A stretch of DNA of 64,000 bases, from assembly GCA_000165345.1 (NCBI GenBank), contig CM000434.1:736001-800000 (forward strand), in the 5' to 3' direction. Made by a program: the position numbers and the translations under genes. Shown one piece after another: positions 541-63,268 of this stretch. Position 1 is the first letter of the stretch, and every line of letters starts with the position of its first letter. Under the pieces are notes generated by a model. The model did not search any database and was not told the origin of the DNA. It saw only the letters and a list, made by a program, of their open reading frames with translations.

Positions 541-615
541 TTTTGGTACCCAACATTTATTTTTTTTCAAATACCGGTATATAATACATGTTTGGCGCCC
601 GCATGTTTTGGCGCC
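541..615. promoter_or_regulatory. Composite promoter cassette: GGTACC (545-550) – ACCGGTATATAA (573-584) – CATGTTTGGCGCC (588-599) – GCATGTTTTGGCGCC (601-615)
   Basis: Read directly from the sequence. The same ordered cassette recurs at 19725-19767. It lies in the divergent region between the partial minus gene (start 235) and the INCENP-like gene (1124). Confidence 0.5.
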
Positions 616-660
616 ACGTTATTATTTTTTCATTAATATAAGGTAAAGGGGAAAAAAGTA

Positions 661-700
661 ATAGGGAGGGGTGGAGAGGGGAGGGGTTTGGGTAGGGAGG
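661..700 (+). repeat. G-run purine tract (potential G-quadruplex) in the INCENP-like 5' region
   Basis: 'gggaggggtggagaggggaggggtttgggtagggagg': seven GGG(G) runs within 40 nt in a ~70% AT context. Confidence 0.5.
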
Positions 701-1123
701 ATAAAATAAAATTTTGATAAATGTGAAAAAAACTTAAGTGGGAAGGGTGGAAAAGGAGTTAAAAGAAAAATATTGATTTGCAATTAATAGTTTAAATCTT
801 AATTTGAATATTGGGAACATATAGGAAGTGCTCACGTTGCAATCCTTTAGATACGGATTGAGGGTGAGGCATCGATCCACGCCTTAGTGAGAGAGGTAGT
901 ATAAAAGGTATTAAAAGGAGGTAATATTGGGCTTATTTTTCAGCTTTAGCATTGAGATTTATCGTATTAAGGGAATCTGAAGAGTGTCAAGACGAGAAAA
1001 GGAGAGAAGTTACTGAGAGTAACAAATTGCATGCAAAAGTGTGTGGTTACGGAGAGAGAAAGACTGGATTTAGATTATATAGAATAGAGCCAGAGGCAGA
1101 TAGAGACTATAGAATAACAAGAT

Positions 1124-3610
1124 ATGGAGACTGAAAATAAAGTTGAGGTGATTGACTTTGAGATTGGTGAGAAAGGAAAGGATAATGCAGATACAAAAGA
1201 AATGGAACAACTTCTGGCCCTGGACGACTTTAAAAAGGTGATTGGACTATTAGAAAGAGCAAAGGAATCAAGCCTAAGGAGGTTGGATAGGACTTTATTA
1301 CTAATAGAAGAAAATTTTGAGCAAGTGAGTAAAAGGTTCGATCAAGACGATCTATCATGCCTGGATTATCGCATGTGTGATGTGGATCTTCCTGAAATGG
1401 AGGTTGATCCAACTGAAGAAGAAATTAACAATACTGTGAATTGTTTTTTGAGCAAATTAGTAGAAACAGGAAAGATCCAGCTTAGGCAGCTAAAGAGAGA
1501 GCTGAGCGAAGTGAAGGAAGTCACGGAAAGTATCCTAGTTTCAGAGGTAAATGAAGAAGAGAATAAACAAATCTTTGAAAGCCCTAAACCAAAAAAGGTC
1601 AAGGATGAAAGCGGGTTTGTAGCGAGTATGAAACGTCTCTGGGAAAACAAGACCCCAAAGCTTTCCTCAATTTGGAGGAGGAATGAAGAGAGTAAGAACC
1701 TGATTGTTAATAAACTTGGAGTGTCCAGATTGGATAAGTTGGATATTGTGGACGGCTTTTTGTTTAAAGACGATGATACAGAAAAGAAGGATGGAGTCAG
1801 TTTGGATATAGAAATGGAAAGTATTGTGGAAGCTGAAGCTGATGTTGAGGTTGATCCTGAGACTGAATTTGGGGTTGAGACAGAAATTGAAGGAACTGGT
1901 GAGGCAGAGGCAGATATGGAGCAAAATATAGAAACAGAAACGGAAGTGATGACATCTGCCAGAAATAATACATCCTTCAAGTCGATTTCTAACGAGGACG
2001 TAATTTCTCCAAAACCTCCAAACGCCATTTTGTCTATGGGAGGATCATCTCCACTTCAGAGCCCACCTTTGTTAGTTCTCACTCCTTCTACTCCCATCCC
2101 GATTGTTCCAACTACAATATCTCACCAGGCTCAAGGAGGAGAAGCAAGGAACTCCATCGCAAAGGTTCAAGTAGGGGAAACCTCTGCAGGGACAGAAATT
2201 CTAAGGACTTCAGTAGTTATCGGTTCGGGTGAGATCGAAAGCCATACAATAGAAGGAAAAGAAAGAGTCTCAAAGTCTACGACAAATGCTAACGAGGATT
2301 CCCCTCTACCTCCAAGGCCAATCAGAAGACAAACAAGTGAGAAGATGCAGGAAAAAGGAGAAAATAGGGTTGAGGAAGTTGAGGGAGGAGAGCAGACTCC
2401 AATTCTAAAGGGAGGATTGGAGGGAACTCCCATAGATAAAAATAGAGAAGAGGTGGGAGAAAATGATTTTGTTCGACCAGAGAGAATTAGCCATGTAAAA
2501 AAAAGTGGATTGAGGTCCATTCTCCACCACTCTGCCAATAGGATTCCTTTGGAACAGACGATGTCTTCCTCTGGGCTTGGAACAGGAGCCGGAGGAGGAG
2601 CTGGAGCAACTGCAGGAGCTGGAGAAAACAATAATACTGCTAATAGAGGAAGTATAAATACTGTCAGACAAAGTAGAGGATCTACAGCTGCTAATAACTT
2701 GGTGAAAACTCCAATCAACAAGGGATTCTGCGAAATGGAAACAGAAGGGAAGGACAAACTTAGAATTGGAGAAAGCCCATGTAGAAGGTACCATAAACGC
2801 CTGAAACTACTTCCTCCTGTAAATCCAGATGAATGTTATGTGCTAACAGACAGTGAAGATGAACAACAGAACTGTGGAGTAGGAGGAAATGGAGGTGGAG
2901 AACTTAAGATTACTAAAGCTCAAAAGAAAATACCACTCTGGGCAAGAAGCATGAATTGGATCCCAAAAATGAAGGAACAAAGAAATGTAGATCCATTCAG
3001 TATCTTTGGAGACTCTTGTATGTTCATGGACCTCGAGGATGTATTCCAAAGACCTTGGTATATCTCCACCATCGCTAGAGATAACAGAATCAAGTCGTGG
3101 CAAAATGATCGGCTCACCTCTCTCAACTGGAGTGAAGACTCTCTTACTTCTGACGAACTCAGACAATACAAGATGAGAATGAACCTCTATATTGATAAAT
3201 CCAATGAAGTCTATGTCACAGAACCTTGCTTCACTCCTTCCCCAAATCCTCTTGCCAATGGCGCATGGAACCATATAAACAAACAAAGAATCAACAGTGG
3301 AGGCACCACAGTCATTCGAAAAGCTCTAAATCTATCCATCCATAGACTTAACAATAGCATCTCCAATAAACCCAACTCCTCCATTCCTTCCTCTCATCTA
3401 GCTCCCCCATCCTCTTCAGTCTCATCTTCCAAACTTGGCGAAGCTACCTTAAACCATCTACAAACAGACAAAAATTCCTCCATTTCCAATATTGAAAACA
3501 ATAATATCGCAAACTTCCTCTCCAAACCAATTAATTCATCCAAAGACTGCCCCAATGTCGCACATCAACACAGCAATCACATTATTGGTAATTCATCCTT
3601 CCTTCAGTAA
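1124..3610 (+). CDS. INCENP-like chromosomal passenger protein; low-complexity E/S-rich body with a C-terminal IN-box
   Basis: 828-aa ORF, ATG at 1124 verified. C-terminal segment 'KIPLWARSMNWIPKMKEQRNVDPFSIFGDSCMFMDLEDVFQRPWYISTIARDNRIKSWQNDRLTS' follows the INCENP IN-box pattern (IPxWA … DP..IFG … DLE[ED][VI]F … R…SW). The rest is acidic/Ser-rich and unalignable. Confidence 0.55.
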   Translation: METENKVEVIDFEIGEKGKDNADTKEMEQLLALDDFKKVIGLLERAKESSLRRLDRTLLLIEENFEQVSKRFDQDDLSCLDYRMCDVDLPEMEVDPTEEEINNTVNCFLSKLVETGKIQLRQLKRELSEVKEVTESILVSEVNEEENKQIFESPKPKKVKDESGFVASMKRLWENKTPKLSSIWRRNEESKNLIVNKLGVSRLDKLDIVDGFLFKDDDTEKKDGVSLDIEMESIVEAEADVEVDPETEFGVETEIEGTGEAEADMEQNIETETEVMTSARNNTSFKSISNEDVISPKPPNAILSMGGSSPLQSPPLLVLTPSTPIPIVPTTISHQAQGGEARNSIAKVQVGETSAGTEILRTSVVIGSGEIESHTIEGKERVSKSTTNANEDSPLPPRPIRRQTSEKMQEKGENRVEEVEGGEQTPILKGGLEGTPIDKNREEVGENDFVRPERISHVKKSGLRSILHHSANRIPLEQTMSSSGLGTGAGGGAGATAGAGENNNTANRGSINTVRQSRGSTAANNLVKTPINKGFCEMETEGKDKLRIGESPCRRYHKRLKLLPPVNPDECYVLTDSEDEQQNCGVGGNGGGELKITKAQKKIPLWARSMNWIPKMKEQRNVDPFSIFGDSCMFMDLEDVFQRPWYISTIARDNRIKSWQNDRLTSLNWSEDSLTSDELRQYKMRMNLYIDKSNEVYVTEPCFTPSPNPLANGAWNHINKQRINSGGTTVIRKALNLSIHRLNNSISNKPNSSIPSSHLAPPSSSVSSSKLGEATLNHLQTDKNSSISNIENNNIANFLSKPINSSKDCPNVAHQHSNHIIGNSSFLQ

Positions 3611-4346
3611 TTTGTGCATCACGTGAGGGTTCCCGCGCGCGCCTCCATCTGCATTTTACTCTAAGTTGGAATATTTCTAGTGCTTCTAAAAGTTAATTAA
3701 GGATTAATAAGTTGAATATCTTTCAAATAATTGTTTATATATATACGTATGTATGTATATGCTTATTTATTTATATTTCTCAGAAATTTCTGACTGTTGT
3801 ATTCCCTATTCTTCAATATTAGTTTCCTTATCATCAATTCTCCCTTACCAATACTGCCAATCCCTTATAAATTTGATTCTTGAATCTTTTCAAATCTTTA
3901 AACAACTTTCCTTTTGGCTTTGGAGTCAATCCTTCCCTCCCCCCATCTACCCACTCACCAATTCTTTCGTTCACCCCTCCCCCTCTTCTCTATTCTGAGA
4001 TTGGAAGGTTTCGCATGTTTTGGCGGTAAAATGTGAGTCAGAATTATTAGGTAAAGGATTATCCCACTAAAGTATAAATACATCAAATACGCTTCAAATC
4101 TCAACTAAGCAAGTAAAAAGGAGTGAATATACCTTAGGATTACTGCTCTATAAAAATAGGCAGGAAGGGAAATTAAGCAAGAAACACGGCTTTATAGCCT
4201 TGTTAAAGTACATCAGCTAAAAATAGAATGAATCTAGGGAGGAGCAAAAGTAGAGGCTTGGCTTAGGAATCATTTTGATGTGATGTTAACTAAGTGTTAT
4301 AGGAAGAAAACTTTAACCCACAAAAAGAAGAAGAAAAATTCTTGTA

Positions 4347-6824
4347 ATGATTAAAGAAAGAATGAAAATACAAGCCATGTTTTTCTTAAATATCATCAAA
4401 ATTATATTTATTATACATTTTTTCACTTTAATACACGGTACCGAATTCAAATTAGATCATGATCAAGAATTTGACCAATTTGAAAAGTTATATAGAGAAA
4501 AAAAATATGAGAAGCTATATAGAGAATTAAAAGAATGTGAATTTAAAGACTCAAGATGCGCACAAATATTGGGAGAAATGTATTTCATAGGATTGCATGT
4601 CGATCAAGATATTGTTACAGCAATATCATACTGGAAATTATCTTCAGATTATGGAAATTCTGAAGGTCAATTTTGCATGGGTATGGTTTACACGCTTTTT
4701 CCGTTCTTGGACTCACTTGAGTGCATCACTAATAGTCATGTTGGCGCCAAACACCCAAAAATTACATTGGACAATTTTCTAGAAAATGGTAGTCCGATAC
4801 CATGTGATTTTTATCCATATTCAAAAGATGACGCTCCAAAATTCTTAAAAAAGTATAAGTCTCTAATAATTAATCACTCTTTTAATGATCAAGATTACGA
4901 AAAGGATGCAAATGTTATAGAAAAAGTGTCAAAATCTATACAGCTTTCAAATCTATATTTATATTTTTCTTCACTCTCTGGTCATACTGGAGCACAGTTA
5001 GCCTTAGGATTTAGATATGAGCATGGACTTGGAGTACCTAGATCATGTGAAGCTGCAATATCTAACTACATTGAGACAGCAAAAACTTCAGTTTCATTTA
5101 AAAAACAAGGATTTTCAGAAAAAGAACAACTAATACGCCTTTCAATTCCGGACTGGGAGCCAATGAAAAAGCTTTTTAATCCAACAGAAAATAGGAATCG
5201 TGAAGATCTAGCTATAAATTTGGCAGAATCTGGAAGTATTACAATCCAACTAGCCTTAGCTAAAAGATATCTATTAGGAGTAGATGGATTTAAACAAGAC
5301 GCTACTAAAGCTTATAAATATCTAAGAAAAATTGCTGATAAAGCTAAATCAATGGTTGGAGTTGTATTAGATATTCCTTCTACACTTATTTATGGCGAAG
5401 CTATTGGGTTACTTGGTTACATGCATGCATTAGGTATCGGTACCTCTCCAGATCTAAAAACTGCATCTGAATATTTTTCAATTTCAGCCTTTATATATAA
5501 CGATCCAGGAGGCCATAATGGTATGGGATATGTTTATTTTCATGGATGTGAAGGATTTGAGAGAAATTTTAGATTAGCTTTTCACCACTTTAATGAAAGT
5601 GCTTTTCATTTATTTGCTGATGCACAATATAATTTAGCGTCTCTTTATCTTACCGGTATGGGTACCCCTCAATCATATTCAGATGCAATTTCTTGGTATA
5701 CAAGAGCTTATGAGCAGGGACATCTTCCATCTGCATATGCACTTTCACAGTTAAATTTGAATGGGCTTGGTATAAATAGAGATTGTAATACAGCTTTGGG
5801 ATTTCTTAGAGAAATTATACAAAGATCAAATTGGACAAATAATTTGATTTCAATTACCAATAAATTTTCAAGATCCAAAAGTAAAGATGAAAAGAATCAA
5901 ATGATTCTCAGTACAATGAAACTTGCAATTACAGGATATGCACCATCTATATCTAACTTAGCCTCTTTATTAGATCAAGATCTTAGAAATAATAAACATC
6001 TTGAATGGGTATCGTCCATAATTGGAATCCCTCTTCCAGATTTTTCATTTAAGCCAAATAGAGTTGAGTACTGGTTTAAGTTATTATCAGCCAAAGTTAT
6101 CCCAAAAATCCTTTTAAAGTTTTTTCCTGATCTTGAAAATATTAATTTAGATACTTATAATATAGGTAACGAAAATAATGAAAAAGGTATCGAAAATATT
6201 AATAAATGGTATTTACCACAAATGTTTTTAGAATTTTCAATATATAATGAGAATGTTGATTCAATTATAAGATATGGAGATTACTCATACTATGGAAAAG
6301 GAGTCGAACTTAGATATAAACTTTCTCCAAAGCTTTTAGAGAATTCTTCTAATTCTAGCTGGATTAGACCTTTAGAGCTCGAAATTGTTTCTATGGAATC
6401 TCCAAATTATTTGGCAGCATTCGATCTTTATAAGATTGTCTCAAATAGCATAATAACTTCTAGATGGATGATTTCTCCTATTTCAGAAGCCTCCTTTAAT
6501 TTAGCATTTATGGCTCAATTCGGAATAGGAATTGTGCAAGATCTTCATTTTGCAGAAAAGTATTATAAAAAGATGGTTGAAACTGGGAGTATCAATAGAA
6601 TAAGCAATGGTATTGGAGATCTTCTTATCTATTTTACGCAAATCCATAGAAGTCTTAATAAAACTATTAATTCTTTAAATAAGATTTCATATCAGGACCT
6701 AAAGGCCAATGGGAATTTCTTCCTCATTCTCAAATTAGGCCACCTCTTACTTTTCCTATTGATTCTCAAACTACTCGTCTATATTTATACTAAATGGACA
6801 AAAACTAGAGGAGATTCTTCTTAA
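4347..6824 (+). CDS. Sel1-repeat (TPR-like) membrane protein, Hrd3/SEL1L-like ERAD adaptor
   Basis: 825 aa with an N-terminal hydrophobic signal (MKIQAMFFLNIIKIIFIIHFFTLIHG). Multiple Sel1-like repeats (…AQLALGFRYEHGLGVPRSCEAAISNY…, GMGYVYFHGCEGFERNFRLAFHHF, AQYNLASLYLTGMGTPQSYSDAISWYTRAYEQGH). C-terminal TM helix (FFLILKLGHLLLFLLILKLLVYIY). The true start may be a downstream in-frame M. Confidence 0.6.
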   Translation: MIKERMKIQAMFFLNIIKIIFIIHFFTLIHGTEFKLDHDQEFDQFEKLYREKKYEKLYRELKECEFKDSRCAQILGEMYFIGLHVDQDIVTAISYWKLSSDYGNSEGQFCMGMVYTLFPFLDSLECITNSHVGAKHPKITLDNFLENGSPIPCDFYPYSKDDAPKFLKKYKSLIINHSFNDQDYEKDANVIEKVSKSIQLSNLYLYFSSLSGHTGAQLALGFRYEHGLGVPRSCEAAISNYIETAKTSVSFKKQGFSEKEQLIRLSIPDWEPMKKLFNPTENRNREDLAINLAESGSITIQLALAKRYLLGVDGFKQDATKAYKYLRKIADKAKSMVGVVLDIPSTLIYGEAIGLLGYMHALGIGTSPDLKTASEYFSISAFIYNDPGGHNGMGYVYFHGCEGFERNFRLAFHHFNESAFHLFADAQYNLASLYLTGMGTPQSYSDAISWYTRAYEQGHLPSAYALSQLNLNGLGINRDCNTALGFLREIIQRSNWTNNLISITNKFSRSKSKDEKNQMILSTMKLAITGYAPSISNLASLLDQDLRNNKHLEWVSSIIGIPLPDFSFKPNRVEYWFKLLSAKVIPKILLKFFPDLENINLDTYNIGNENNEKGIENINKWYLPQMFLEFSIYNENVDSIIRYGDYSYYGKGVELRYKLSPKLLENSSNSSWIRPLELEIVSMESPNYLAAFDLYKIVSNSIITSRWMISPISEASFNLAFMAQFGIGIVQDLHFAEKYYKKMVETGSINRISNGIGDLLIYFTQIHRSLNKTINSLNKISYQDLKANGNFFLILKLGHLLLFLLILKLLVYIYTKWTKTRGDSS

Positions 6825-7278
6825 ATCCTAATGATATTGAAATAATATAATTTTTTATTTTCCTTTATATATTTTCTCCTATTTAATTAATCTTTTTAAC
6901 ATTATTCGCCTATGCATGTTTTGCGCGCCAGTTTGCCGGTGTTTAATTTAAAAGGTAACGTGTCTCGTAATTATATAAAATATTATTAAAAAATTTTATT
7001 CAATATTATTTAATAATATATGTGAAATGTTAATAAATAAAAAAAAATTTAATCAGACCAAAAGGCGGCAACTTCTAATGGCAATTAGAAATTTCTGTCT
7101 ACAATTTTAAATTGTCAAAAATTAATGAATTAAATATTAAATTGCTGATCATCTTATTTAAATTATTAAAATTATATTCCGCGTAAATAATTAATAAAAG
7201 AATAATTCATCCAAGTTCCCATTGAAACTAAGTAAGAAGTCTTGTTTTAAAAGATAAACTTCAACTCGAGAAAAAAAA

Positions 7279-7716
7279 ATGGCAGATACTGAACAAAAGA
7301 AGAGAACCTTCAGAACTTATAGTTACAGAGGTGTTGACCTCGACAAGCTCCTTACCATGAAATTGGATGAGGTTGTTGAGCTTTTACCAGCACGTAAAAG
7401 ACGTAAGATAGCCAGAGGTTGTCTTAACAGAAGAACTGCAGCTTTTATCGCAAAGCTCCGCAAATCTAAGGCTGAATGTCCAATGGGAGAGAAACCTGTT
7501 GCTGTTCGTACCCATTTACGTAATATGGTTATCCTCCCAGAAATGGTTGGTTCTGTTGCAGGTGTCTACAATGGTAAGACTTATGTTACTGTTGAAATTA
7601 AGCCAGAAATGATTGGAATGTACCTTGGAGAGTTCTCTATCACTTACAAGCCAGTACGTCATGGTAAGCCAGGTGTTGGTTCAACCAGTTCTTCCAGATT
7701 CATTCCTCTAAAGTAA
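7279..7716 (+). CDS. RPS15: 40S ribosomal protein S15 (uS19), intronless
   Basis: 145 aa, aligns along its full length to eukaryotic RPS15 (…[68 protein letters not shown]). Confidence 0.95.
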
Positions 7717-9072
7717 AAGGTTATTTTAAGTTACCACCATTATTTATAAGAAAATATTTGGTGCGTATTATTGATTGGCCCTACCATATTCTATTTACAG
7801 AAAAGTTTGTTAACTTTGGAAATATAATAACATGGTCTCTTCTTAAGGGAAATAATCCAGTACTTTCTTTTTTTTCATGTGCTCGGTATGTTCTGAAATC
7901 TAAGGTTGAGAGGATATTGAAGGAGGGGGTCCTCATTTTTTGTATTATTATTCCTTAGAAAAATGGCTCGACCTGCAATTGAAGTAAACAATGAAGAATA
8001 GAAGAAGATGGAATTTGGCATGTAGCTTATTATGAGAGCTTTACAATCATTAACACTGATTTTGTTGAGTATTTGGTACCTTTTCTTAAAATTTGGACTA
8101 TTCCAAAATATTTAACTATAACTCACATTTCAAATCTTATTCTAAAACCTTTATTGATTATATACAATACATCATTATTGTATCGTTTCATGCTCTAAAT
8201 TCCATTAAAGTTGAATAAAACTAACAGCCGCCCCTCCAGTCTTGAAACTATTGGTAATAGATGTATAAATATATATGTATGAGAGACTTCAGCTTCACCA
8301 TTGTTTGGTCTTGGACAAGACAGCCTAAATAATTGATGAACAAAACGATATTGAACTGTCAATTTCTCCTTGAAGTATGCCGCTACACTGACTTTGTCTG
8401 ATTATCAAGTCAATTCCGCATGATTATACCTCCCTAGTGTATATTATGTTGGTGTAGTATGGTCATGTTTATGATGATTATGATGTGGGTCTCTGAATAC
8501 TGATTGTTTACTATTCTAATAAGGTGAAAAGTTTTGATGAATATTGATAAAAACCATTGACTAGCTTTTTTTCAAGAGAGGCTATATATCGATATTTTAT
8601 TCATTTTAGTTCACTTTCTTTTTAGATAGAGGAGGATCTTTATAATTTTTCAGAGTTTTTACTCTTTTCTTTATTTCCTTTCCCACTGCATTTTATATTT
8701 ACCTTTTAAATAATCGATATCAATTCTAATGCATTATGCCTTTGCCTTTCTATGTGACCACTTTTTCCCCACCCGCTAATTTTCTCTTTTGATGCATTTC
8801 TTTTCTTCCCATCAACATAATTTTTCACAAATATGGCGCCTAAATGCGAGACGACAATGACCCGGTACTGAAACTTTATGGCGCCATTCTAAAATATTAA
8901 TTTTTATTTGTAAATAGATTTTAATTATATTTAATTATTATAATATAATTAACTATTTACAAAAAGAGTCATTTAAAGAAAATTTTTTTTGCCTTAAAAG
9001 AAAATTTACTTCTTTTAAAATAACAAATTTTTGAAATTTTGGGACTTTTGTAATTTTAAAGTATTTCCAGAA

Positions 9073-11310
9073 ATGACTTTTGCAAGACCAATTGTTAGTG
9101 TTTTTCCATCAAACGACTCTACAAAGGCTACTTCCAGTATTCCTTTGCCAACAGTCTTTGTTTCTCCATTAAGACATGATCTTGTTCGTTATGTTTTCAC
9201 CAATATGTCAAAGAACAAGAGACAAGCTTATGGTGTTTCCACTAAAGCAGGTAAGTTCTTGAAGATTCAACAGAGGAAATGTAAATGATTTGGTCATTCG
9301 TGATGAAAGCTATTGATAGGGACATCTGAATTTTCCATGATGTTCTGAAGAAATATTCATTATTTCTAAGATAGTAGATTCTGATCATTATGTATATAAT
9401 ACGCCACTTTTACATTTCAACTATATTAATATTATCCAATTGTCTTGAACATCGATTAATTTCTATATTCCACTTTTAGGCCACCAACATTCTGCTGAGT
9501 CATGGGGTACAGGTAGAGCTGTTGCTCGTATTCCTCGTGTTTCTGCTTCTGGTACTAGCAGATCAGGTAAGTTAATGGTAAAACTCATGTTAATAAATGG
9601 CTTGCTCAGTTGATTGGTTAATCTATTTAACTGGGATTAAATAGTATTATTTTCCAAGTGGTGCCATTCTTTTTTTATGGATATAAAGAGAATAACCGGG
9701 ATGAGAAAATTTGATGATCAATAAATATGGAGAGCTTTTTGGTAGACAAATGATGTTAATAAGTCGTGCACCACACTGAATATTTTATGTGGATAAAACG
9801 ATTCTTTGCTGCCTGTTTTAGAGAAAAAGGAGAAATCTTTTGTATCTATAACAGGTAGTCTGACTAACCAATAACTTTCCAGTGATGGTGGATCGTCAAT
9901 GAAACTAGCAGTGTTCATTTTAACATGAGATATCACTTGATTCTAAATCAACTTTATTTTTTCAACTTTTCAATTATAGGCCAGGGTGCTTTCGGTAACA
10001 TGTGTCGTGGTGGTCATATGTTCAGTCCAAACAAGACTTACAGAAGATTCCACAGAAAGATCAATACCACTGAAAAGAGACATGCAGTTGCAGCAGCCAT
10101 TGCAGCTACCGGTTGCCCATCTTTGGTAATGGCTCGTGGACATCGTATCAATAATGTACCAGAATTACCTTTGGTTATATCCAATGAAATCCAAAACATC
10201 AACAAGACTAGTACTGCTGTTGAATTCTTCAAGAATTTCGGTAAGTTTTGAGATTGTATTTGGCCAAAAGATATTTAAGATGATGAGGTACTATGACAAG
10301 CAAGTTTTGTATCTCTTGCTTTTTATTATATGAATGGGAATTTGGTAGTGGTCTGTATTTGATGGATTCCTGTTTCTATATTTGCATTTTTTGGGATGAT
10401 TTTGGAAGTTACCCAGCTCATACTGAAATATGTAACTGTTGAGAATGCTTCCTTTATTTTATATCTGAAATTATGCAGGTAAATTTCTCTGCCTTCTTAA
10501 CTCGTAAGAAAGTGAGAAATAGAAACATTCATATATATTTGTTACTTTATCATCTTTATGATCATGATCATTCCATTTGTCAATAATATTGGCCAAATAT
10601 ATTTATTATATAACCATTAGTAACAATTTTTAACTTAATATCTTTTTAATTCAATAGGTCTCGAAGAAGAAATGAAGCGTATTGAATCTTCAATAGCTAT
10701 TAGATGTGGTAAGGGTAAGATGAGGAATAGAAGAAGAGTCTGCGCTGTAGGACCATTAGTTGTTTATGCTGAAGATAATGGTATTGTTAAGGCCATGAGA
10801 AATATCAAGGGTGTCGATACATGCTCTGTTGAACGTCTTAATCTCTTGAGACTTGCTCCAGGAGGTACATTTGGTCGTCTTACAATCTTCACAAAGGGTG
10901 CCATTAAGAGACTCCAAGAGATCTATGGTAGCTATACTCATGGCTCATCTTCAAAGGTTGGATACACATTGCCACGTCCAGCAATGACTAACGCTGATAT
11001 TACCCGTATCATCAACTCCACTGAAGTTCAATCTGTATTAAGACCATTACGTGGATTCAGATGCATGGGTAGTATGGGTAGATCCAAGACTAAGAAGAAT
11101 AACTTGACAAATCTCACAAAGAGAGCATGCTTGAACCCAGCATACACCAGCCTCAGAAAGAGCGCAAGATTAGCCCAAATCCCAGGTACTAGACTCCATG
11201 CAATTAAACAACGCCAAAAGGCAGCAAACCGTGCACTCAAGAAGTCAATCAAACAGAAATCTGAGACAGCTCTTGCTGCTAAGGCCTTATCTGGTCATAA
11301 CCAAAATTAA
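9073..11310 (+). CDS. RPL4: 60S ribosomal protein L4 (uL4); 4 exons, 3 introns
   Basis: Exon 1 is 9073..9250 ([11 protein letters not shown]…STKAG). Intron 1 has a GTAAGT donor at 9251 and an acceptor AG at 9478-9479. Exon 2 is 9480..9566 ([29 protein letters not shown]), followed by gtaagt. Exon 3 is ~9980..10240 ([44 protein letters not shown]…), with a gtaagt donor at ~10241. Exon 4 is 10658..11310 ([27 protein letters not shown]…). Phases are consistent and the spliced product is ~392 aa. The ORF track shows only fragments (9031, 9925, 10672). Confidence 0.85.
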
Positions 11311-11763: not shown

Positions 11764-13258
11764 TTACCTTTCTTCTTCGTATCTTTTCTTGGATATATTT
11801 TTCAAAATATTCTTTATTTTGAGTAATCTTTGTTTACTCTCTAAAATTTGATCTTCTGTATTACTTAACTCTCTCTGTTTCTTAAGTAACTCAGAATTAA
11901 GCATTCTAGCTTTGTTAATCTTTTCATTAATTTCAATTTGAATCTCTTGTATTTTATTTGAATTCAAATCTTGTTCTGATAACTTTTGTTTTATTATCTC
12001 AATTTCATCTATCAAACTATTTTTTGTTATCATCAACTCTCCATTTTCTCTTATATAAACTGATATATTAAAATGACTATCATTTAGTTTATTATTGGCT
12101 TCCATAATAATTTCTTCATCATCAAATACCTCATGAATATTGAAATCTCTTTTTGTTTCCCACAAGTACTTTATTACTCGAATTTTTTCATCTAGTCCAG
12201 ATAACTGAATTTTTATTGCATTCATTGTTGACTGGATCTTATTCAAATTTGAATCCTCAATTGTATTCTTTCCTTTTATACTGATTAATTGTTCATTTAA
12301 CTTTTCTATTATTTCAATTTTCTTGCTTTCCTCACTTTTCAATTGCAATATTTGCTTTTTATTAATTAATATTTTCTTATTCAATTGTTCAATCTTTATT
12401 TTTGTATCCTTTCCTGCTCGAATCAGCTTATCTCTCTCAGTTTCTAAACTTTTTACCATCTTTTTCTTTTGTTCGTTAATTTGAGCATACTCTGTTCTTA
12501 CTGACAATATTGCAGTATTCTCCATTGACATCATTCCAAGTATACATCTTGTATTATCCTCCAGCTCTTTTAATGTATCCTCTAAATTTATTATTTCTTT
12601 CCTTCTCATTTTTGAACAAGATTCTAATGCAACAGTATTTAACTGTTTTATCATTAATTCATGTGATAACTCCTCATTCTTTTTTATTACATTACTTAAA
12701 TTCCTATCACAATTTATCTTCATTCCCACCTTCTCTTTGAGCTCCTCTTCATTTGTAATCAACCTAGATGATAATTCAGCAATATCATCCTCAATAAGCT
12801 TCAATTGACTTTTATAATCCTCCTCTTTACTTGATAATCTACTCGTTTCATTCATATAGTCGGATATCAAATCTTTAATTTCTTTAAAATTTTTTTTTAC
12901 TTCAAAATATGTACTATTTTTCATCGTTTCTATTGATTTTCTTACTCCTACTATAATCTCTTTTTCCTTTTGATACTCATCTTGAATTATCGTAAATTTT
13001 GACCAAATCTAAAACATAAAAAATTAGTAATTAATTTCTATCTTTTTTTCCTTCCAAAATCAAAGTTTTCAACCCAAATTGGTTAAATACTTCAAGTACT
13101 ATGGTTCATTAAAAAAAAGAACTTACCTTTTTAAGATTTTCATTGTTGTTTAATACTCTTTCAAATCTATGATAAAGCTCTTTAGCCTCACTTGGAGTTA
13201 CTTCCTTATTATTTATATAATTTTGGACATATTTTGAAATTTTTGAATTCAACATCAT
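11764..13258 (-). CDS. K/E-rich coiled-coil protein (hypothetical); 2 exons
   Basis: The main ORF 11764..12924 is a continuous heptad-like coiled coil. The frame stays open up to 13008 (…IWSKFTIIQDEYQKEKEIIVGVRKSIET-MKNSTYFEV). A short 5' exon at 13127..13258 (MMLNSKISKYVQNYINNKEVTPSEAKELYHRFERVLNNNENLKK) is bounded by a GTAAGT donor (plus 'acttac' 13121-13126) and joins in phase 0 via acceptor AG (plus 'ct' 13009-13010). An in-frame TAA precedes the ATG. Confidence 0.5.
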
Positions 13259-13812
13259 TTAATTAATATTCCTGCTAATATTATTACCCATCAAAACAAA
13301 TATATTATAGCTTTCTCTAAAAAATTGATTTGATTTTATCCAATGAGAAATTTAATTAATTCCTAATTTTCCGTTCCTTGCTTTTCTATTTACAGCTTTC
13401 AACATTTATTTTAATAATTTAATCATAAAACTTGTCGAAAAATTGCAAAAATACTCAATTTTACTCAATTTCTATTTTTTACTCTTTTTTTAGTACTTTG
13501 TCGCATCTGCATTATGGGCCGCATGCAATTTGCAACTAACCTTGCAATAATTTGCCCGGTATGCAACTGGCGTTGTCCACATGCAAATTATTATTACTAA
13601 TAACATCGGTATGTGCAAGTTTGCATGTAAACGAGCGCAAAAAAAAAAATATTACGTAATGTAAAAATATACAAAACAAAAATACACGTGTCAAAATATA
13701 TGTTAAATAAAATGGTTTATAAAAAATAAAAAATTTACTTAATATTTGAAGAAAGTATGAGAAATCAAATTATCGTATTTTATTGTAAGTAGTCAGAAAG
13801 ATGCTTAAGTAG

Positions 13813-15255
13813 TCAAATTTTTTTCTTAAAATGTGACTTTTTGATATTGTTGAGCTTAACTTTGAGCATCCAAGAAGGTACATCTGCGCCAGAAGACTTT
13901 ATAACCTTTGCAATGGACTTAATTTTTGGAATGTCTCTTAAAGTAAAGAAGGTTATTGCATATCCAGTTCTTCCAGCACGGCCACAACGTCCCACTCTAT
14001 GAATATAATTACTTGGAGAATGAGGGAAATCATAGTTAACTACGCAAGAAACGTTCTTAAAATCAACTCCTCTAGCCATTAAATCAGTGCAAATTAATAT
14101 CCAAATCTTACCAGTCCTAAACCTCTGAATAATGTTATCTCTCTTTACTTTTGGCATATCAGAATGTATAGCTTCCACAATCAAGTTATCATACATAAGT
14201 TTCTTAAAGAGTCTTTGAGCATCATCCTTGCTGTTTGTGAATACAAGAGTAGGAAGCATTATTTTGCCTTGCTTAATAAGTTGTCTTAATGATTCAATTT
14301 TTGCATCATCTTTTGTGACACAAACAAGCTCTTGAATGATGGTACTTGAAGCAGCTAATCTATGGCCAAGTGTTACTTTCACTGGAGATTTCATTATAGA
14401 ATCTGCTAAATTTATTACAATTTGAGGTAATGTTGCAGAAAATGCTGCAATCTGAACCTTTCCACCCTTTGGAATATTTGAATGTGATAGTATTTCATCA
14501 ATTTGAGGAGCAAAACCCATATCCAATAACTTATCAACTTCATCTAAAACAATCATTGAGCATCCTTGCAAATTAATTATATTATTACGACAAATATCTG
14601 CTAAACGATATGGAGTTGAAACCGCTATATCTAACCTCTTTGTGTTACTTTCTTGAGCTTTATCAATCTTGCCACTAATATATCTGCAACGATACTTTTT
14701 GCCATGAATATCTAAAATTATCTTAATCTCACGAACTATTTGCTGTGCTAACTCTCTTGTTGGACTTAAAATCAAGTTTGCACAGTATACTTTATCATTT
14801 TTTAATCTGCCAAGTATTGGAAGTATATAACATAAAGTTTTTCCCGAACCTGTTGGAGATTGTACAAGCAAATCAACTCCAGAAAATAGCAGAGGGATTA
14901 CCTGAGACTGGATTGCTGTTGGCTTTTGGTATTTCAATATGTTCATTATATTATCTAAAACCCAATCTGGAAGATTTCCACATTCTTTTATTTCTTTAAA
15001 TGTTAGTAATGGCATAGTCTTATTGTCTCCATCTACTGCTATATTCATTGAATTCCTCTTATCAATAATATATTCCTCATTTATTATCGTTTCTCCTTTA
15101 CTTTCTTTATCTTCTTTTTCAAAATTCTCTACGGAATTGCCATATTCTTCCAATCTTGCTTTTTCATAAGATATCTTCTCCCAAAGCTCTCTAGATTTTC
15201 TTCCGTTTGTAAATGATGTACCTGAAGCCAAAATTGAGAATGATGAACGATCCAT
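13813..15255 (-). CDS. DEAD-box-family ATP-dependent RNA helicase (motif II variant DEVD), ROK1/DDX52-like
   Basis: 480 aa. Motif I GSGKT, Ia PTRELAQQ, II VLDEVD, III SAT, VI HRVGRCGRAGRTG. ATG at 15253-15255 verified. Confidence 0.8.
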   Translation of the reverse strand: MDRSSFSILASGTSFTNGRKSRELWEKISYEKARLEEYGNSVENFEKEDKESKGETIINEEYIIDKRNSMNIAVDGDNKTMPLLTFKEIKECGNLPDWVLDNIMNILKYQKPTAIQSQVIPLLFSGVDLLVQSPTGSGKTLCYILPILGRLKNDKVYCANLILSPTRELAQQIVREIKIILDIHGKKYRCRYISGKIDKAQESNTKRLDIAVSTPYRLADICRNNIINLQGCSMIVLDEVDKLLDMGFAPQIDEILSHSNIPKGGKVQIAAFSATLPQIVINLADSIMKSPVKVTLGHRLAASSTIIQELVCVTKDDAKIESLRQLIKQGKIMLPTLVFTNSKDDAQRLFKKLMYDNLIVEAIHSDMPKVKRDNIIQRFRTGKIWILICTDLMARGVDFKNVSCVVNYDFPHSPSNYIHRVGRCGRAGRTGYAITFFTLRDIPKIKSIAKVIKSSGADVPSWMLKVKLNNIKKSHFKKKI

Positions 15256-16630
15256 TCTTAGTTTGTTATTGTAACTATTGCCACTAACTTATGCTTTAAG
15301 CTTTATTTAATAATTTTCTAAGCTAATACCTAATAAGAACTTTCCAATTATTATTTAGTCTCCAAATACAGCTTTCGTTATTTATCTAACTTTCTTTTTT
15401 TTTTATTTCCGAGAAAACTCCTTAAAGGCATACTTAACCTCTAATTTATATTATAAGATTCCTACGAATATTGGCGCCAAAAGTCAAATTATACAAATAT
15501 TGGTTGAGTTGAATAATGCATTAAGAATAAAATAAATTCAAAATAAAAAGAAACATATTATAAAAATATAATTATAGTTAGAAAAATGGTTAGCCTTACA
15601 AGTAATTCTATTATTAAAAATAACAATGTAAGTTGAACTGTACTAAGGACTTAAGATGCTTTAACTTCAAGTTAGCTAGTAATAGCAAGAGAAAAGTCAA
15701 GAAGATTATCAGAATTCCTTTTATTTCACTAAAAAGATTTTCAAACCTAACATGTAATTTTAATTCATCACTTAAACCAACTTGACATCAATCCCTCAAA
15801 CTTGAAATCTGTTCTGTCCTCAATATCATTTCAAAATAAGCATTAAAATAAAATAGAGAATTCCAATTTAGTATCCTCAATAAGCCTTATAGATGCTAAA
15901 AATAGTTTAAATTAATTAAGTTAACTCAAAATATTTATTTCTTTAATAGTTTTAATGGTTCATCAGAAATTTGAGCGAAGATTTCTGTTTTCAACTGCTA
16001 TTTAACAGATTCAATAGGGGAATCTTTGTTTCATCATATTAAACCATTAATGACATTATAAACTTACATTTTAATTTAAACCTTGAAAAAAAATAAGAGA
16101 ATATTTACTTCTGATTCATTTTGTCCCAAATAAATTTTTAGTACTCCGTGAAATACCAATTAAGACAAAAATCCAGAATGGCGCCAATTGTCATGGATGT
16201 GGCGCCAGAACATGCAATTTGAAGAAACCATTCAGAGAATGTTTTGAAGCAACATCAAGAATGGCAATATAGAAAAGAAGCAAGAAATCCGTATGGGAAA
16301 TACAAGTCATACACCGAAAGAAAATAGTAAAAACACGGTTTAAGTCATGAAATCTTTAATGACATTGCAATTGTATGCTATCTAAAAAAATATATATGTA
16401 GGTAACAAGTTCAAAGTAATGTTGCAAAGCTAATAATATTCAAACTCAAAATTGAAAATAGATACTGGAAAACTTTATATCAATTTAGCAATTTATAATA
16501 TGTAACCATGTGTGTTCCTAATGGATAGTAGCATTGTAAGTATCAACACTTGCAATAATAATCTAAACGTTATTCCATATAAATAAAAACCAAAAGTGTC
16601 AATTCTACATAAGAGCTACAAGTGCAATAT

Positions 16631-17242
16631 TTATGAGCAGCATCCGCCTTGTCTAATTGGCTGAGCTCCTGCTAACTTGGGACCTTGTTGCGCAGAGCCC
16701 CTTGTATTCTGACTATTCACTTGAACTCTCTTCTTGATCTCACCAGCCATTGTATGGAATGCTTGCTCAACATTATAAGCGTTTTTAGCAGAAGTTTCTA
16801 TAAATTTTATTCCATGAGAATCTGCAAGTTCTCTTCCCTCGTCTGATGTTACCACTCTCTTGCTCACAAGATCGCACTTATTACCTACTAACAATTTATT
16901 AACATTCTCCATTGCGTATCTATCAATCTCTTGGATCCATTGTTTAACATTATCAAAAGAATCTCTATCTGTAACATCATAGACAATAATGATTCCATGT
17001 GCCCCTCTATAATAACTAGAAGTAATTGTTCTAAACCTTTCTTGTCCTGCAGTATCCCAAATCTGTAACTTTACTGTCTTATTCTCCAAACTTATTGTTC
17101 TTATCTTGAAATCAACCCCAATTGTTGAAATATAACTGTCAGTATAGGTGTCATCAGCAAATCGTAAGAGTAAGCATGATTTACCTACACCACTATCTCC
17201 TATTAAAAGTAGTTTGAATAAGTAGTCGTACTCAGGATTCAT
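16631..17242 (-). CDS. RAB1: Rab1/Ypt1 small GTPase
   Basis: 203 aa. [22 protein letters not shown]…[14 protein letters not shown]…WDTAGQERF…GNKCD…ETSAK…GGCCS, a diagnostic Rab1 sequence with a C-terminal CC prenylation motif. Confidence 0.95.
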
Positions 17243-17579
17243 CTGAACCTATTATCCTGAGAAACTCTAAATTTTATATATTGTAATCACTTGATCCTTC
17301 CCTTATGTATCACCCTTACAACACAAAAAAAATTATCCTTTTCACTCAAGTTAGCGCTGAAGACGCCAGTAATTTGTATGGTTAAAATGCTTTTTTTCCC
17401 TCAAATTCACAATTTATGCTAGCCTCCAAAAAATGTGGTTCACAGATGGCGGGTTTTGTGGCGCCAAGAGTTCAAATTTTGTTATAATTTAATTTAAAAT
17501 ACTAATTAACTATGAAAAAACAAATATTGAAATAATAAAAATATTTTTAAAAAAAGTTATTATAGTTATCTTTAATACC

Positions 17580-17692
17580 TCAAAAAACAACTAAGTGGGT
17601 TAAAAATACAAAGTGAGCTACCTGAGAAACTTCCTTGTCTGTGGTTGGTTTACCAATATATAAATTAGTCTTGGAATTTGCTTCTCCCCACA
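17580..17692 (-). CDS. Possible small ORF (~37 aa) between NOP2 and RAB1; unverified
   Basis: ATG at ~17690-17692 reading MWGEANSKTNLYIGKPTTDKEVSQVAHFVFLTHLVVF*. It lies ~30 bp downstream of a minus-oriented CATGCATG…TGGCGCC composite (17723-17742). No homolog recognised and below the ORF-track threshold. Confidence 0.15.
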
Positions 17693-17770
17693 TATTATAA
17701 TTTAATGGTGCACGTAATTTTGTGGCGCCAGAGTCATGCATGTAAAATAGTGTATTGGATTTTGCATGCG

Positions 17771-19399
17771 CTAGTTTACTTTGACATTGGGCTTTTTATG
17801 CAAGGGTTGTGAGCTTGATTTATCAGAATTCTGTTTAAGAGAACGAGAAAGCATTCTGTCTCTCTTACCGGGTTTATTCTTTGACTTTTTAATAGGTGAA
17901 ATGGTGTTAAGAATTTTAGAATCTCCTGAAGTATTTTTGATTTGTTCTTGTTTAGAATAATCAGAGTCAGCTACTGGATCAATCTTGTGTATAAGATCAT
18001 TAGTCCATTTTTCTTTGCCCCAAGTCTTGATGTAGCTATTTGACTTGCTTCTGTCTTTTTTAATTTGTTTAGGAATATCATTCGAAATCTTTTTAAGCTT
18101 AGCAACGAAGAAGCCATCCATATTATTGAGATGAGGGTATATTCTTCTAGTATATGTGGAAATTGTAGGATTAAATCTATGCTCCCTAAACTTGGAGATA
18201 CCATTTGATCCAATTTCAACTCCTAAAGGAACCAACTTAACATGACGAGTTCTTAAAATATAGTCAATAACCATCTCATTTTCCTCAATAGAAATAGAAC
18301 AAGTAGAATAAACAATATACCCACCTGTTTTGCTATTAGCATCAACCATATCAACAGCAGCTTTAAGGAGTTCCTTTTGCAACAAAGAGTGTTGAGCCAA
18401 CTCTTTAATGCTTCTCTTTACCTTAACAGATGGATCCCTTGCAATAATTCCAAGACCTGTGCATGGAGCATCAAGTAGTACTCTATCAAGTTTTGGAAGG
18501 AATGATCCTAACTCCTTACCATCCATATTAACTACAATACTATTATTAATACCCATTCTATGAAGATTAGCAATCAAACCAGTACATCTGTCCTTTCTTA
18601 AATCATTTGCATATAATATGCCAGAGTTCTTCATTAATTGTCCAATATAAGTTGTTTTACCACCTGGAGCTGCTGCCATATCAAGAATCTTCTCTCCTGG
18701 TTGAGGGGCTAATGCCATAACTGGAATAAGACTAGAAGCGCTTTGAATCATATAATGTCCGGCAAGATACTCTGGAGTTGCACCAATTGGAACACTACTC
18801 GAATATATTGTAAGTCCAACCTTGGTCCATTCACCTGTAGGATCTACGTTTGCACCTCTAGAAATCAATTTCTGTGCCAAATCTCTTCTTCTACTCTTAA
18901 GCATATTGGTTCTAATTGTTAAAGGTCTCTTATTTTCATTTGCCTCAAAGAAATCTAAAGCTTCTTTTGGAGAAAACAAGTTTAATATGTAGTTTGTAAG
19001 CTCAGTATTATATCCATATAGGATTGATATATCATCCGCTAATTTATCCATCAATTCACTTCTGGATGCTTTTTTTGAGTTTAAGCCTTTATATTCTATA
19101 GTGGCTTTACCTGGACCTTTTGAGTCCAAATACTCAACTATTGATTCTACTCTTGATTTTATTGTTTCCAAATCTTCACCAGTAACTCTTAATCCAAATG
19201 GGCCAATAGTATCGTCATCACCTTTCTTAATATTTATGGCAATTTCATCTTCATCATCCCTTTCTTGATCAAAATTTGTTACAAATTCGTCATTTATCTC
19301 CTCTCCTTCCTCAGATTGTAAATCAGAATCTGAAAATCCCTCGTTTGAGAAATGATCTTCAGTCTCCGAATCCGTAGATAATACGTCCTTACCCTTCAT
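17771..19399 (-). CDS. NOP2: NOL1/NOP2/Sun-family rRNA (cytosine-C5) methyltransferase (Nop2)
   Basis: 542 aa. SAM-binding motifs (…LDMAAAPGGKTTYIGQLM…, …LLDAPCTGLGIIARDPSVK…) and a catalytic TCSI motif. Acidic N-terminus and basic C-terminal tail are typical of Nop2. Confidence 0.85.
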   Translation of the reverse strand: MKGKDVLSTDSETEDHFSNEGFSDSDLQSEEGEEINDEFVTNFDQERDDEDEIAINIKKGDDDTIGPFGLRVTGEDLETIKSRVESIVEYLDSKGPGKATIEYKGLNSKKASRSELMDKLADDISILYGYNTELTNYILNLFSPKEALDFFEANENKRPLTIRTNMLKSRRRDLAQKLISRGANVDPTGEWTKVGLTIYSSSVPIGATPEYLAGHYMIQSASSLIPVMALAPQPGEKILDMAAAPGGKTTYIGQLMKNSGILYANDLRKDRCTGLIANLHRMGINNSIVVNMDGKELGSFLPKLDRVLLDAPCTGLGIIARDPSVKVKRSIKELAQHSLLQKELLKAAVDMVDANSKTGGYIVYSTCSISIEENEMVIDYILRTRHVKLVPLGVEIGSNGISKFREHRFNPTISTYTRRIYPHLNNMDGFFVAKLKKISNDIPKQIKKDRSKSNSYIKTWGKEKWTNDLIHKIDPVADSDYSKQEQIKNTSGDSKILNTISPIKKSKNKPGKRDRMLSRSLKQNSDKSSSQPLHKKPNVKVN

Positions 19400-19706
19400 T
19401 TTTCAATTTATATATGTTACCTTTTATGCTAATTTACCTACAAACTTCGGCTAATATCTAAAAAGTTTCACCCTTGAATGGCAACTAAATCAATACTTTG
19501 ATTCTGCCTTACTTTATTATTATTATTGGCTTCTCTTAAATATCTTCCAAGTTTATTTTACTTATTCAATAAGTTCAACCTAGAAGCAATTTTGACCGGT
19601 TTAACTAATTTTTTATGCTCTAGTCATCTATCAAATTCTATCTAAATTATCAAATTTGACTATTGCTTTTTTATTTCTATATTATTTAATTTCTATCATT
19701 TCACCG

Positions 19707-19767
19707 TTGGCGCCCAACCAGTAGGTACCGCATGTAGCTACCGGTATATAAGCCATGTTGGCGCCCA
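19707..19767. promoter_or_regulatory. Composite promoter cassette upstream of NOP2: GTTGGCGCCC (19707-19716) – GGTACCGCATG (19725-19735) – TACCGGTATATAAG (19739-19752) – CATGTTGGCGCCC (19755-19767)
   Basis: Same order and orientation as 541-615. It lies 310-370 bp upstream of the NOP2 ATG (19399, minus). Confidence 0.5.
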
Positions 19768-63248: not shown

Positions 63249-63268
63249 GCATGCATGCATGCATGCAT
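63249..63268. repeat. (GCAT)5 microsatellite followed by an E2F-like box TAGGCGGGAAAC (63281-63292)
   Basis: 'gcatgcatgcatgcatgcat', in the convergent 3'–3' junction between the kinase and the partial minus gene. Confidence 0.6.

Follow-up and report, generated by a model that had tools for sequence, protein, structure and literature searches.

E2F sites and CGGTA palindromes as parts of a probable flexible promoter module in Cryptosporidium

Promoters in a 64-kb stretch of Cryptosporidium parvum chromosome 6 (the window; positions 736,001 to 800,000 of contig CM000434.1, numbered here from its first base) carry known E2F sites together with palindromes made of CGGTA half-sites, and the two probably make up a flexible cis-regulatory module, in which a factor reading the palindromes would cooperate with E2F/DP. 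Little is understood of how transcription is controlled in Cryptosporidium, a major cause of diarrhoea in children and, to our knowledge, the only apicomplexan genus retaining E2F/DP. The window was compared with its syntenic loci in C. ubiquitum, C. canis, C. felis, chipmunk genotype I, C. bovis, and C. muris; because they come from these syntenic loci, the counts for species other than C. parvum are not independent of the C. parvum ones. The proposed module would consist of one to three E2F/DP sites (GGCGCC, GGCGGGAA), a CATG flank a few bases from many of these sites, and at least one CGGTA palindrome at 14 to 23 bp, centre to centre, from an E2F site, in the form of TACCGGTA(T), often extended to CCGGTATRTAA, or of (C)GGTACC(G). 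A sequence-specific factor would bind the CGGTA elements and, over a short distance, work together with E2F/DP, or elsewhere with an ApiAP2 bound at GCATGC, to open and activate the promoter in either orientation. Many of the promoters that carry the module are probably bidirectional.

Two copies were singled out in an earlier note on this DNA, which described a tripartite promoter cassette of three elements in fixed order, GGTACC, ACCGGTAT, and CATGTT-GGCGCC, and took it to suggest a co-regulated gene set. Both cassettes lie where the note placed them, 310 to 375 bp upstream of minus-strand ATGs (235 for Rad9, 19399 for NOP2). Region 1 (541-615) is in the divergent intergenic region between Rad9 (PF04139, minus strand, presumed cgd6_3150) and INCENP (1124-3610, plus strand, cgd6_3160), and region 2 (19707-19767) has NOP2 (cgd6_3230, its chromosome 6 name in the 2013 supplement) on one side and the 3' end of Gpi16 on the other, both genes being read from the minus strand. 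The elements begin at 545 (GGTACC), 573 (ACCGGTATATAA), 587 (CATGTTTGGCGCC), and 602 (CATGTTTTGGCGCC) in region 1 and at 19709 (GGCGCC), 19724 (GGTACC), 19740 (ACCGGTATATAA), and 19754 (CATGTTGGCGCC) in region 2. The E2F/DP consensus (TTTSSCGC or the palindrome TGGCGCCA, taken from PMC3734150, Table 1) is matched by TTTGGCGCC at 591-599, TTTTGGCGCC at 606-615, and TTGGCGCC at 19707-19714 and 19758-19765, and the third element of the cassette is an E2F box with a CATG flank. In the pairwise cassette alignment, GGTACC at 545 aligns with the left GGCGCC of region 2 within the shared flanks TTGG__CCCAAC; TTGGTACCCAAC (545-556) and TTGGCGCCCAAC (19706-19717) differ in their two central bases alone, so that the GGTACC box of region 1 stands where region 2 has its left E2F box. 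A poly-T run adjoins the cassette of region 1; poly-T is the second motif, after E2F, of peaks from the assay for transposase-accessible chromatin with sequencing (ATAC-seq; bioRxiv 2025.01.17.633476).

The strict ordered pattern GGTACC-N5-30-ACCGGTAT-N5-20-GGCGCC is matched twice in the window, at the two cassettes, and never in 100 dinucleotide-preserving shuffles, which bears out the arrangement seen in the earlier note. The single words are enriched as well: GGCGCC occurs 20 times (0.49 in shuffles), GGTACC 17 times (3.1), ACCGGT 14 times (1.6), and CCGGTAT 14 times (0.9). Because 11 of the 17 GGTACC copies fall inside open reading frames (ORFs), leaving six sites in non-coding DNA, the raw count of 17 versus 3 overstates the regulatory signal; one coding hit that was checked is just the codons ACC GGT ATG GGT ACC. 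GGCGCC is divided into 18 non-coding and 2 coding copies, and the density of CCGGTAT is 0.65 per kb in non-coding versus 0.08 per kb in coding DNA. When hexamers in the non-ORF DNA of the window were ranked against a second-order Markov expectation, with both strands counted, the order was GGCGCC (E2F), GCATGC (AP2_1), ACCGGT (20 versus 1.2 expected), poly-C, and CCGGTA (15 versus 1.5), with GGTACC (12 versus 2.0) lower; the CGGTA palindromes are the third or fourth most over-represented non-coding signal in the window and occur in about half of its promoters. The top octamers of the same DNA include ACCGGTAT (7 versus 0.14 expected), TACCGGTA (6 versus 0.13), and CCGGTATA, and the same words rank in the top 6 to 16 in the syntenic non-ORF DNA of C. 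ubiquitum and C. canis. By these rankings, the second cassette box represents one copy of a non-coding element that recurs and in which CCGGTAT is constant. The CGGTA family is present in 11 of 19 promoter-bearing intergenic regions versus 1 of 5 convergent ones, E2F-like sites in 14/19 versus 0/5, and both together in 8 of the 19.

The two kinds of element also lie close to each other. Of 16 CGGTAY sites, 7 have an E2F-like site no more than 30 bp away (null 0.079, p about 1e-4), or 9 if GCGGGAA at 48951 is counted, and so do 4 of 6 GGTACC sites (p about 6e-4), whereas the figure for the control word GCATGC is 2 of 10, which is not significant. The distance from CGGTA element to E2F site is 14 to 23 bp, centre to centre: the range is short, and the spacing is not fixed. 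GGTACC and ACCGGT pair with each other within 30 bp three times (0.19 expected, p about 1e-3). CATG stands within 8 bp of 11 of the 26 E2F-like sites (null 0.067, p about 3.5e-7) and may be an ApiAP2 site or an extended E2F/DP flank. CGGTA sites away from E2F adjoin GCATGC instead (27725, 52586, and 13556).

The first two boxes of the cassette do not look like independent elements. GGTACC and ACCGGTAT or ACCGGTATATAA resemble arrangements of the single half-site CGGTA, of which CGGTACCG and TACCGGTA are the two possible inverted repeats. Near E2F sites, GGTACC is usually (C)GGTACC(G), for instance, CCGGTACCG upstream of RPL4 in C. ubiquitum and C. canis and GGTACCGAATTT between PI4K and the kinase gene in three species; C. 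bovis carries GGTACCG-N6-GGCGGGAA. One form can also replace the other at orthologous positions (CGGTACC in C. parvum is CGGTATC in C. felis, and ACCGGTTCGGTACC in C. parvum is CCGGTACGG in C. canis), and for this reason we read the first two boxes as one motif family. From these sequences we infer that GGTACC and TACCGGTA share one factor.

Conservation was scored in three-species global alignments of C. parvum with C. ubiquitum and C. canis, in which 4.9% of non-coding 6-mers, and 8.1% of GC-rich 6-mers outside known motifs, are identical in both other species. Against this background, 6 of 9 distinct CCGGTA sites (p about 2e-5) and 13 of 18 GGCGCC sites are identical in both, and GGTACC is conserved at 5 of 6 sites in C. 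ubiquitum and 1 of 6 in C. canis. In the Rad9/INCENP promoter, GGTACC, AATACCGGTA, and both GGCGCC boxes are kept in order in chipmunk genotype I, C. ubiquitum, and C. canis with single-base variants. The block at 571-584 is among the three best-conserved 30-bp blocks of this intergenic region; its C. canis counterpart reads ...GGTATGTAA, and C. ubiquitum has ACTGGTA. Of the two CATGT flanks in region 1, the first is kept in three of four species and the second is confined to C. parvum. Upstream of NOP2, two GGCGCCAA boxes are invariant in four species, and ACCGGTA and ACATGCGGTA lie between them in C. parvum, C. ubiquitum, and C. felis. Both cassettes rank with the best-conserved 30-bp blocks in their own intergenic regions, which hold other such blocks too. 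A Myb site (YAACGG) overlapping the left NOP2 E2F box was considered and is not conserved. Further strongly conserved footprints in the Rad9/INCENP intergenic region (650-690, 703-732, and 765-779) comprise a G-rich, G-box-like block, AAAATTTTGATAAATGTGAAAAAAA, and AAATATTGATTT, and the NOP2 leader likewise retains a TTTGATAA-like word (19641-19660).

That the two cassettes arose by chance or by shared descent without function, as GC-rich palindromes recurring in AT-rich DNA through chance or mutational bias or as a copied segment of about 30 bp, is very improbable. Full copies number only two, their extended identity in C. parvum (26/30) is above that in C. ubiquitum, and the CATGTT flank and the similar ATG spacing (338 versus 341 bp) may be coincidence. 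However, the shuffles gave no match, the same elements recur in many further promoters, and each is found at orthologous positions far above background, which in practice refutes this explanation. The two stretches of roughly 300 bp that separate the cassettes from their ATGs show no relation in alignment, and in C. ubiquitum the two cassettes have only the GGTATATAA part and the E2F core in common, so that the copies are not a duplicated segment; a larger duplication was ruled out because of the unrelated stretches. A fixed distance to the ATG was rejected as well, since other sites are about 120 to 800 bp away; the 338/341-bp match is coincidence or orthology. The elements are kept in the orthologous promoters of C. 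ubiquitum, C. canis, C. felis, and chipmunk genotype I, as would be expected from the proposal of the earlier note, and this retention argues for a functional cis-regulatory module rather than chance or recent duplication.

What does not hold is the fixed order. The core of about 36 bp in the NOP2 promoter (window 19716-19753) is inverted in C. canis (locus L006, about 9658-9700): the local alignment scores 48 as reverse complement versus 14 in the same orientation, with 32/36 identities over TTATATACCGGTAGCTACATGCGGTACCTACTGGTT. The event looks like a small promoter inversion flanked by palindromic E2F sites, and it indicates that the core is kept as a unit that can face either way relative to NOP2. 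At 45356-45399, ACCGGT comes first, followed by CGGTACC, GGCGCC, and CCCGCC, and the strict pattern is confined to both C. parvum copies and the C. ubiquitum NOP2 promoter, with none at the C. canis and chipmunk genotype I loci. The cassette is thus a real promoter feature without a fixed order of parts. The inversion also bears on readings of CCGGTAT at the RNA level. A splice donor or a poly(A)/terminator signal was rejected, as CCGGTAT runs antisense to NOP2, faces the opposite way in one species, and is present in divergent promoters, which have no 3' ends; a role in RNA is unlikely given the inversion and the Rfam scan of the whole window, which gave no RNA family match.

Both cassette copies contain TATATAA, and TATATAAT and TATATAAG fit TATAWAAR, which raises the question of a core promoter: CCGGTATATAA would be a TATA box with an upstream CCGG resembling a TFIIB recognition element (BRE), positioning TBP/TFIIB, and the E2F box 8 to 9 bp downstream would be near the start. 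The divergent Ytm1 promoter, with two outward-facing copies of CCGGTATA around a central E2F-like site, would suit this arrangement. Yet only CCGGTAT is constant. Many sites continue into non-TATA sequence (CCGGTATGCAAC, CCGGTATTAATAG, CCGGTATCTACG, CCGGTATACACA, and CCGGTATTTGCATGC), three promoters with CCGGTATATAA in C. parvum carry CCGGTATGTAA in C. canis, and orthologues and other sites read TATGTAA, TAAATA, TATGCAA, TATCTAC, or TATACAC in place of TATAWAWR. CTACCGG misfits the BREu consensus SSRCGCC, and, unlike in a TATA box, neither orientation nor distance is fixed, given the C. canis inversion and ATG distances of about 120 to 800 bp. A 2077-bp transcript-like Logan contig (window 19541-17465, minus strand), covering NOP2 with 142 bp upstream and 306 bp downstream, is weak evidence, its sequencing-run type being unverified; as an apparent transcript assembly, it would place the NOP2 5' end at or upstream of 19541, and it starts about 170 to 220 bp from the cassette. 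A look-up of transcript-like contigs for placing the INCENP start site found none. In tandem intergenic regions, the same reading would have the element drive an antisense or divergent transcript and so act as a bidirectional promoter, in keeping with the many antisense long noncoding RNAs of C. parvum, which lie head-to-head with mRNAs and have E2F motifs upstream (PMC7840661). We consider the core-promoter reading as a whole quite unlikely and favour a sequence-specific factor over TBP.

The presence of the CGGTA family in 11 of 19 promoter-bearing intergenic regions makes it a common promoter element and not the marker of a narrow regulon. The earlier note had named the genes correctly (NOP2, INCENP, RPL4, RPL32, PI4K, and the kinase), but the specific co-regulated set it drew from them is not borne out by this prevalence. 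In the 2013 expression clusters, cgd6_3150, INCENP (cgd6_3160), and NOP2 (cgd6_3230) fall in clusters 7, 39, and 75, and cgd6_3190, cgd6_3200, and cgd6_3380 in clusters 20, 44, and 46 (Oberstaller 2013); with no cluster shared among these six, the data point the same way, although with 200 clusters the test is weak.

Such breadth could also reflect a general regulatory factor or insulator, an abundant Myb-like protein in a Reb1-like role that keeps promoters nucleosome-free and, in so compact a genome, blocks read-through from the gene upstream, rather than activating a gene class. The consensus of Reb1 is TTACCCGG, which TACCGG resembles. The elements are found in about half of the promoter intergenic regions regardless of gene function, they pair with E2F or GCATGC boxes, and in tandem intergenic regions they separate the 3' end of one gene from the promoter of the next. 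C. parvum also has annotated Myb DNA-binding proteins of unknown function (PMC12246861). On the other hand, (A/T)TACCGGTA, the form found at the sites, falls one C short of the Reb1 consensus, and the elements also occur in divergent promoters, which have no gene upstream that would call for insulation. On balance, we judge a Reb1-like role unlikely.

The module of E2F sites and CGGTA palindromes is the explanation we prefer, and several points weigh against it. Its function is read from conservation and position alone, and the sample is small, one 64-kb window and its syntenic loci, with counts that are not independent. The spacing is loose (14 to 23 bp), which speaks against taking direct protein-protein cooperation as given; binding of a protein and its cooperation with E2F/DP are what we infer from the sequences. 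Motifs cluster in nucleosome-free regions anyway, which could yield some of the co-localization, although the GCATGC control shows none. GGTACC is weakly conserved in C. canis (1/6), and its copies at 545 and 23318 lack the CGGTAC form, so that the derivation of both boxes from one half-site is put forward as a hypothesis. A conserved partner motif of E2F would nonetheless be of use: it could serve as bait for DNA-affinity purification of the factor, it gives sites to mutate in reporters, and it offers a way to divide the very large E2F gene set into subclasses. The C. canis inversion would amount to a natural experiment in which the core behaves as an orientation-independent unit.

Table 1. 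Elements of the two cassettes and of further promoters in the window
Feature	Position	Strand	Conservation and context
GGTACC box, Rad9/INCENP divergent promoter	545-550		GGTACC also in chipmunk genotype I and C. ubiquitum; GATACC in C. canis
ATACCGGTATATAA, the TACCGGTA palindrome with A/T-rich extension	571-584	+	AATACCGGTA kept in chipmunk genotype I and C. canis
Two E2F boxes with CATG flanks, CATGTTTGGCGCC and CATGTTTTGGCGCC	587-615		Both GGCGCC cores invariant in four species
Extra E2F box, TTGGCGCCAA	383-388		148 bp upstream of Rad9 ATG; kept in chipmunk genotype I and C. ubiquitum
Left E2F box of NOP2 cassette, TTGGCGCCCA	19706-19715		GGCGCCAA invariant in C. parvum, C. ubiquitum, C. 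canis, and C. felis
Core between NOP2 E2F boxes: GGTACCG (19724), GCATGTAGCT, TACCGGTATATAA (19739)	19716-19753		Near-identical in C. ubiquitum
Right E2F box with CATG flank, CATGTTGGCGCCC	19754-19766		GGCGCC core invariant in four species
Proximal GACCGGTT (AACCGGTC in NOP2 sense)	19593-19602		196 bp upstream of NOP2 ATG
RPL4 upstream module: GGCGCC, then GCGAGACGACAAT, CCCGGTACT, GGCGCC	8835-8885		At the place of CCCGGTACT, CCGGTACCG in C. ubiquitum and C. canis, CCGGTACT in chipmunk genotype I, GGTACC in C. felis
GGTACC-N12-GGCGCC, upstream of 886-aa gene	23318-23341		GGTACC kept in C. ubiquitum and C. felis; GGTATC in C. canis
RPL32/437-aa divergent promoter: ATACCGGT, CGGTACC, GGCGCC, CCCGCC	45356-45399		CGGTAC and CCCGCC kept in C. 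ubiquitum and C. canis
322-aa/Ytm1 divergent promoter: TATACCGGT, then E2F-like GCGGGAAA, then GCCGGTATATAAAT	48905-48980		Conserved in three species
PI4K/kinase intergenic region: GGTACCGAATTT, then two GGCGCC	59816-59855		GGTACCGAATTT identical in three species
TATACCGGTA, 38 bp from GCATGCATGC (AP2_1) box, RPN11/GBE intergenic region	27722-27731		TATACCGGT and GCATGCATGC kept in C. ubiquitum and C. canis
TATACCGGCATTTGCATGC, eRF1/PI4K divergent promoter	52585-52603		ATACCGG-N5-GCATGCA kept in three species
CCCGGTAT, promoter of 490-aa gene	13555-13562	+	CCGGTAT at matching place in six species, including C. bovis and C. muris
AACCGGTATAT, 40 bp from CCCGCC box, upstream of 1871-aa gene	38006-38016	+	Read in the C. 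parvum sequence

The features are listed in Table 1. The NOP2 core in C. felis retains ACCGGTA and ACATGCGGTA, and the proximal site at 19593-19602 has ACCGGT at the matching position in C. ubiquitum, C. canis, and C. felis. The earlier note had also listed GGTACC next to GGCGCC elsewhere in the window, and the pairs at 23318/23336, 45366/45380, and 59816/59839 were confirmed; upstream of RPL4, however, no exact copy stands between the boxes at 8835 and 8880, C. parvum having CCCGGTACT where orthologues have the CGGTACCG form (CCGGTACCG in C. ubiquitum and C. canis, CCGGTACT in chipmunk genotype I, and GGTACC in C. felis). Between the same paired boxes, GCGAGACGACAAT (8848-8860) is conserved in five species; related GAGACA words, found three times in the RPL32/437-aa intergenic region (45200-45340), resemble, like GCGAGACGACAAT, the published "unknown set 1" motifs (GAGWCA and RMGACG). 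At 23318-23341, GGCGCC and the downstream ACATGAT..TGTGAG block are kept in all orthologues. In the RPL32/437-aa promoter, ATCACGTGCTGCATTAT with a CACGTG E-box adjoins the E2F-like boxes in C. ubiquitum (locus L018, about 6240) and C. canis (locus L019, about 6330); in the C. parvum counterpart (45400-45412), CACGTG is mutated, and the sequence reads CATCGTGTGC.

Conservation in the 322-aa/Ytm1 promoter (48905-48980) extends to CTATACCGG, GCGGGAAA, and GCCGGTAT.TAAAT, identical in C. parvum, C. ubiquitum, and C. canis; the two oppositely oriented CCGGTATA copies around GCGGGAAA in this Ytm1/WDR12 promoter are all invariant in the three species. The minus-strand gene of the 322-aa/Ytm1 pair may have a short first exon, judging from a conserved splice donor on that strand, CCAGAGTAAGTT, and an ATG near 48790. 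Similar words occur elsewhere in the window. CATGTTGGCGCCAAA lies inside a Sel1-repeat ORF (4737-4751); C. ubiquitum and chipmunk genotype I, though not C. canis, retain its GGCGCCAAA, which may represent either an intragenic E2F site or mere coding constraint. ATACCGGTAT and TACCGGTACCG, 20 bp apart within the 1871-aa ORF (32721-32755, read in C. parvum), may likewise reflect coding constraint or a regulatory site within the gene. The convergent 437-aa/322-aa intergenic region (47500-47545) holds a dense GCATGC array and GACCGGTAAT, which suggests an unannotated promoter, perhaps of a transcript that is antisense or non-coding. Four overlapping GCATGC words are formed by a (GCAT)n run downstream of the kinase gene (63249-63290), with GGCGGGAA 12 bp further on.

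The E2F part of the module is already known, and Bankier 2003 is reportedly among those to be credited for E2F/DP sites of Cryptosporidium promoters. Both the promoters of C. parvum (PMC3734150) and its ATAC-seq peaks (bioRxiv 2025.01.17.633476) are known to be dominated by E2F sites, with E2F/DP sites TGGCGCCA and TTTGGCGGGAA described by Oberstaller 2013 and Xiao 2025. The GGCGCC boxes of the cassettes behave like these published sites: they fit the consensus, are nearly restricted to non-coding DNA, and are the best-conserved elements. What goes beyond the published sites is the frequent CATG flank, the short-range partnership with CGGTA palindromes, and the pairing of boxes 44 to 52 bp apart around a CGGTAC-containing core (NOP2 and RPL4). 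The CATGT beside the E2F boxes (TACATGTTTGG) resembles the AP2_1-like motif 7, ACATGY (Oberstaller 2013, Table 1); ACATGT at 586-591 fits it, but two of the three copies, GCATGT at 601-606 and CCATGT at 19753-19758, do not, and the cassette CATGT is 1 to 3 bp from GGCGCC.

The CGGTA-palindrome family, in contrast to the E2F part, appears to be undescribed for Cryptosporidium. Established motifs of the genus are E2F, AP2_1, G-box, GAGA, and CAAT (PMC3734150; 2025 review), and the primary AP2 motifs in Table 4 of the 2025 review (AP2_1-like, AP2_2-like/GTGTGT, G-box, GCGTGCA, and AAAA) include none with GTAC or CCGG. ACCGGT, CCGGTA, and GGTACC are absent from the 2007, 2013, and 2014 Cryptosporidium motif papers and the tables of the 2025 review, and within this literature the earlier note's impression that the combination is new holds as well. 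No C. parvum AP2 specificity in Table 4 of that review matches GGTACC or ACCGGT. A literature search for GGTACC, ACCGGT, and TACCGGTA returned mostly cloning primers.

Among known systems, the TATA box/BRE shares the TATATAA of both cassette copies and differs in that the TATA part of the Cryptosporidium element is not conserved over sites and species, its orientation is free, and there is no BRE match. In sequence, the element resembles upstream palindromes of oomycetes that have no known factor, Phytophthora motif-9 (GTACCGGTA) and Plasmopara streme-5 (ATACCGGTAT) (PMC3520976, PMC10031896): the 10-mer ATACCGGTAT is exact at 571-580, both are abundant, conserved upstream inverted repeats, and oomycetes and apicomplexans both belong to the SAR supergroup. 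The oomycete motif, however, is tied to effector genes and infection-stage expression and not to E2F, and the lineages are distant; homology of the binding factors is pure conjecture, and we take the resemblance as a lead, not as membership. We tentatively raise the possibility that the CGGTA palindromes (TACCGGTA and CGGTACCG) are a major undescribed class of promoter element whose reader partners with E2F/DP and might be common to oomycetes, an ancient SAR-wide factor from before the ApiAP2 expansion. The element is also like TRP-1 (TCGGCTTATATTCGG) of Toxoplasma ribosomal-protein promoters and GAATATA(C/A)CC (PMC11358496) in being a composite of CGG and TATAT, and it shares with TRP-1 the presence in promoters of translation-related genes and the short-range co-occurrence with GCATGC, there TRP-2 (PMC11358496). 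Unlike TRP-1, whose match to TTATATACCGG is loose, the Cryptosporidium element extends beyond ribosomal genes.

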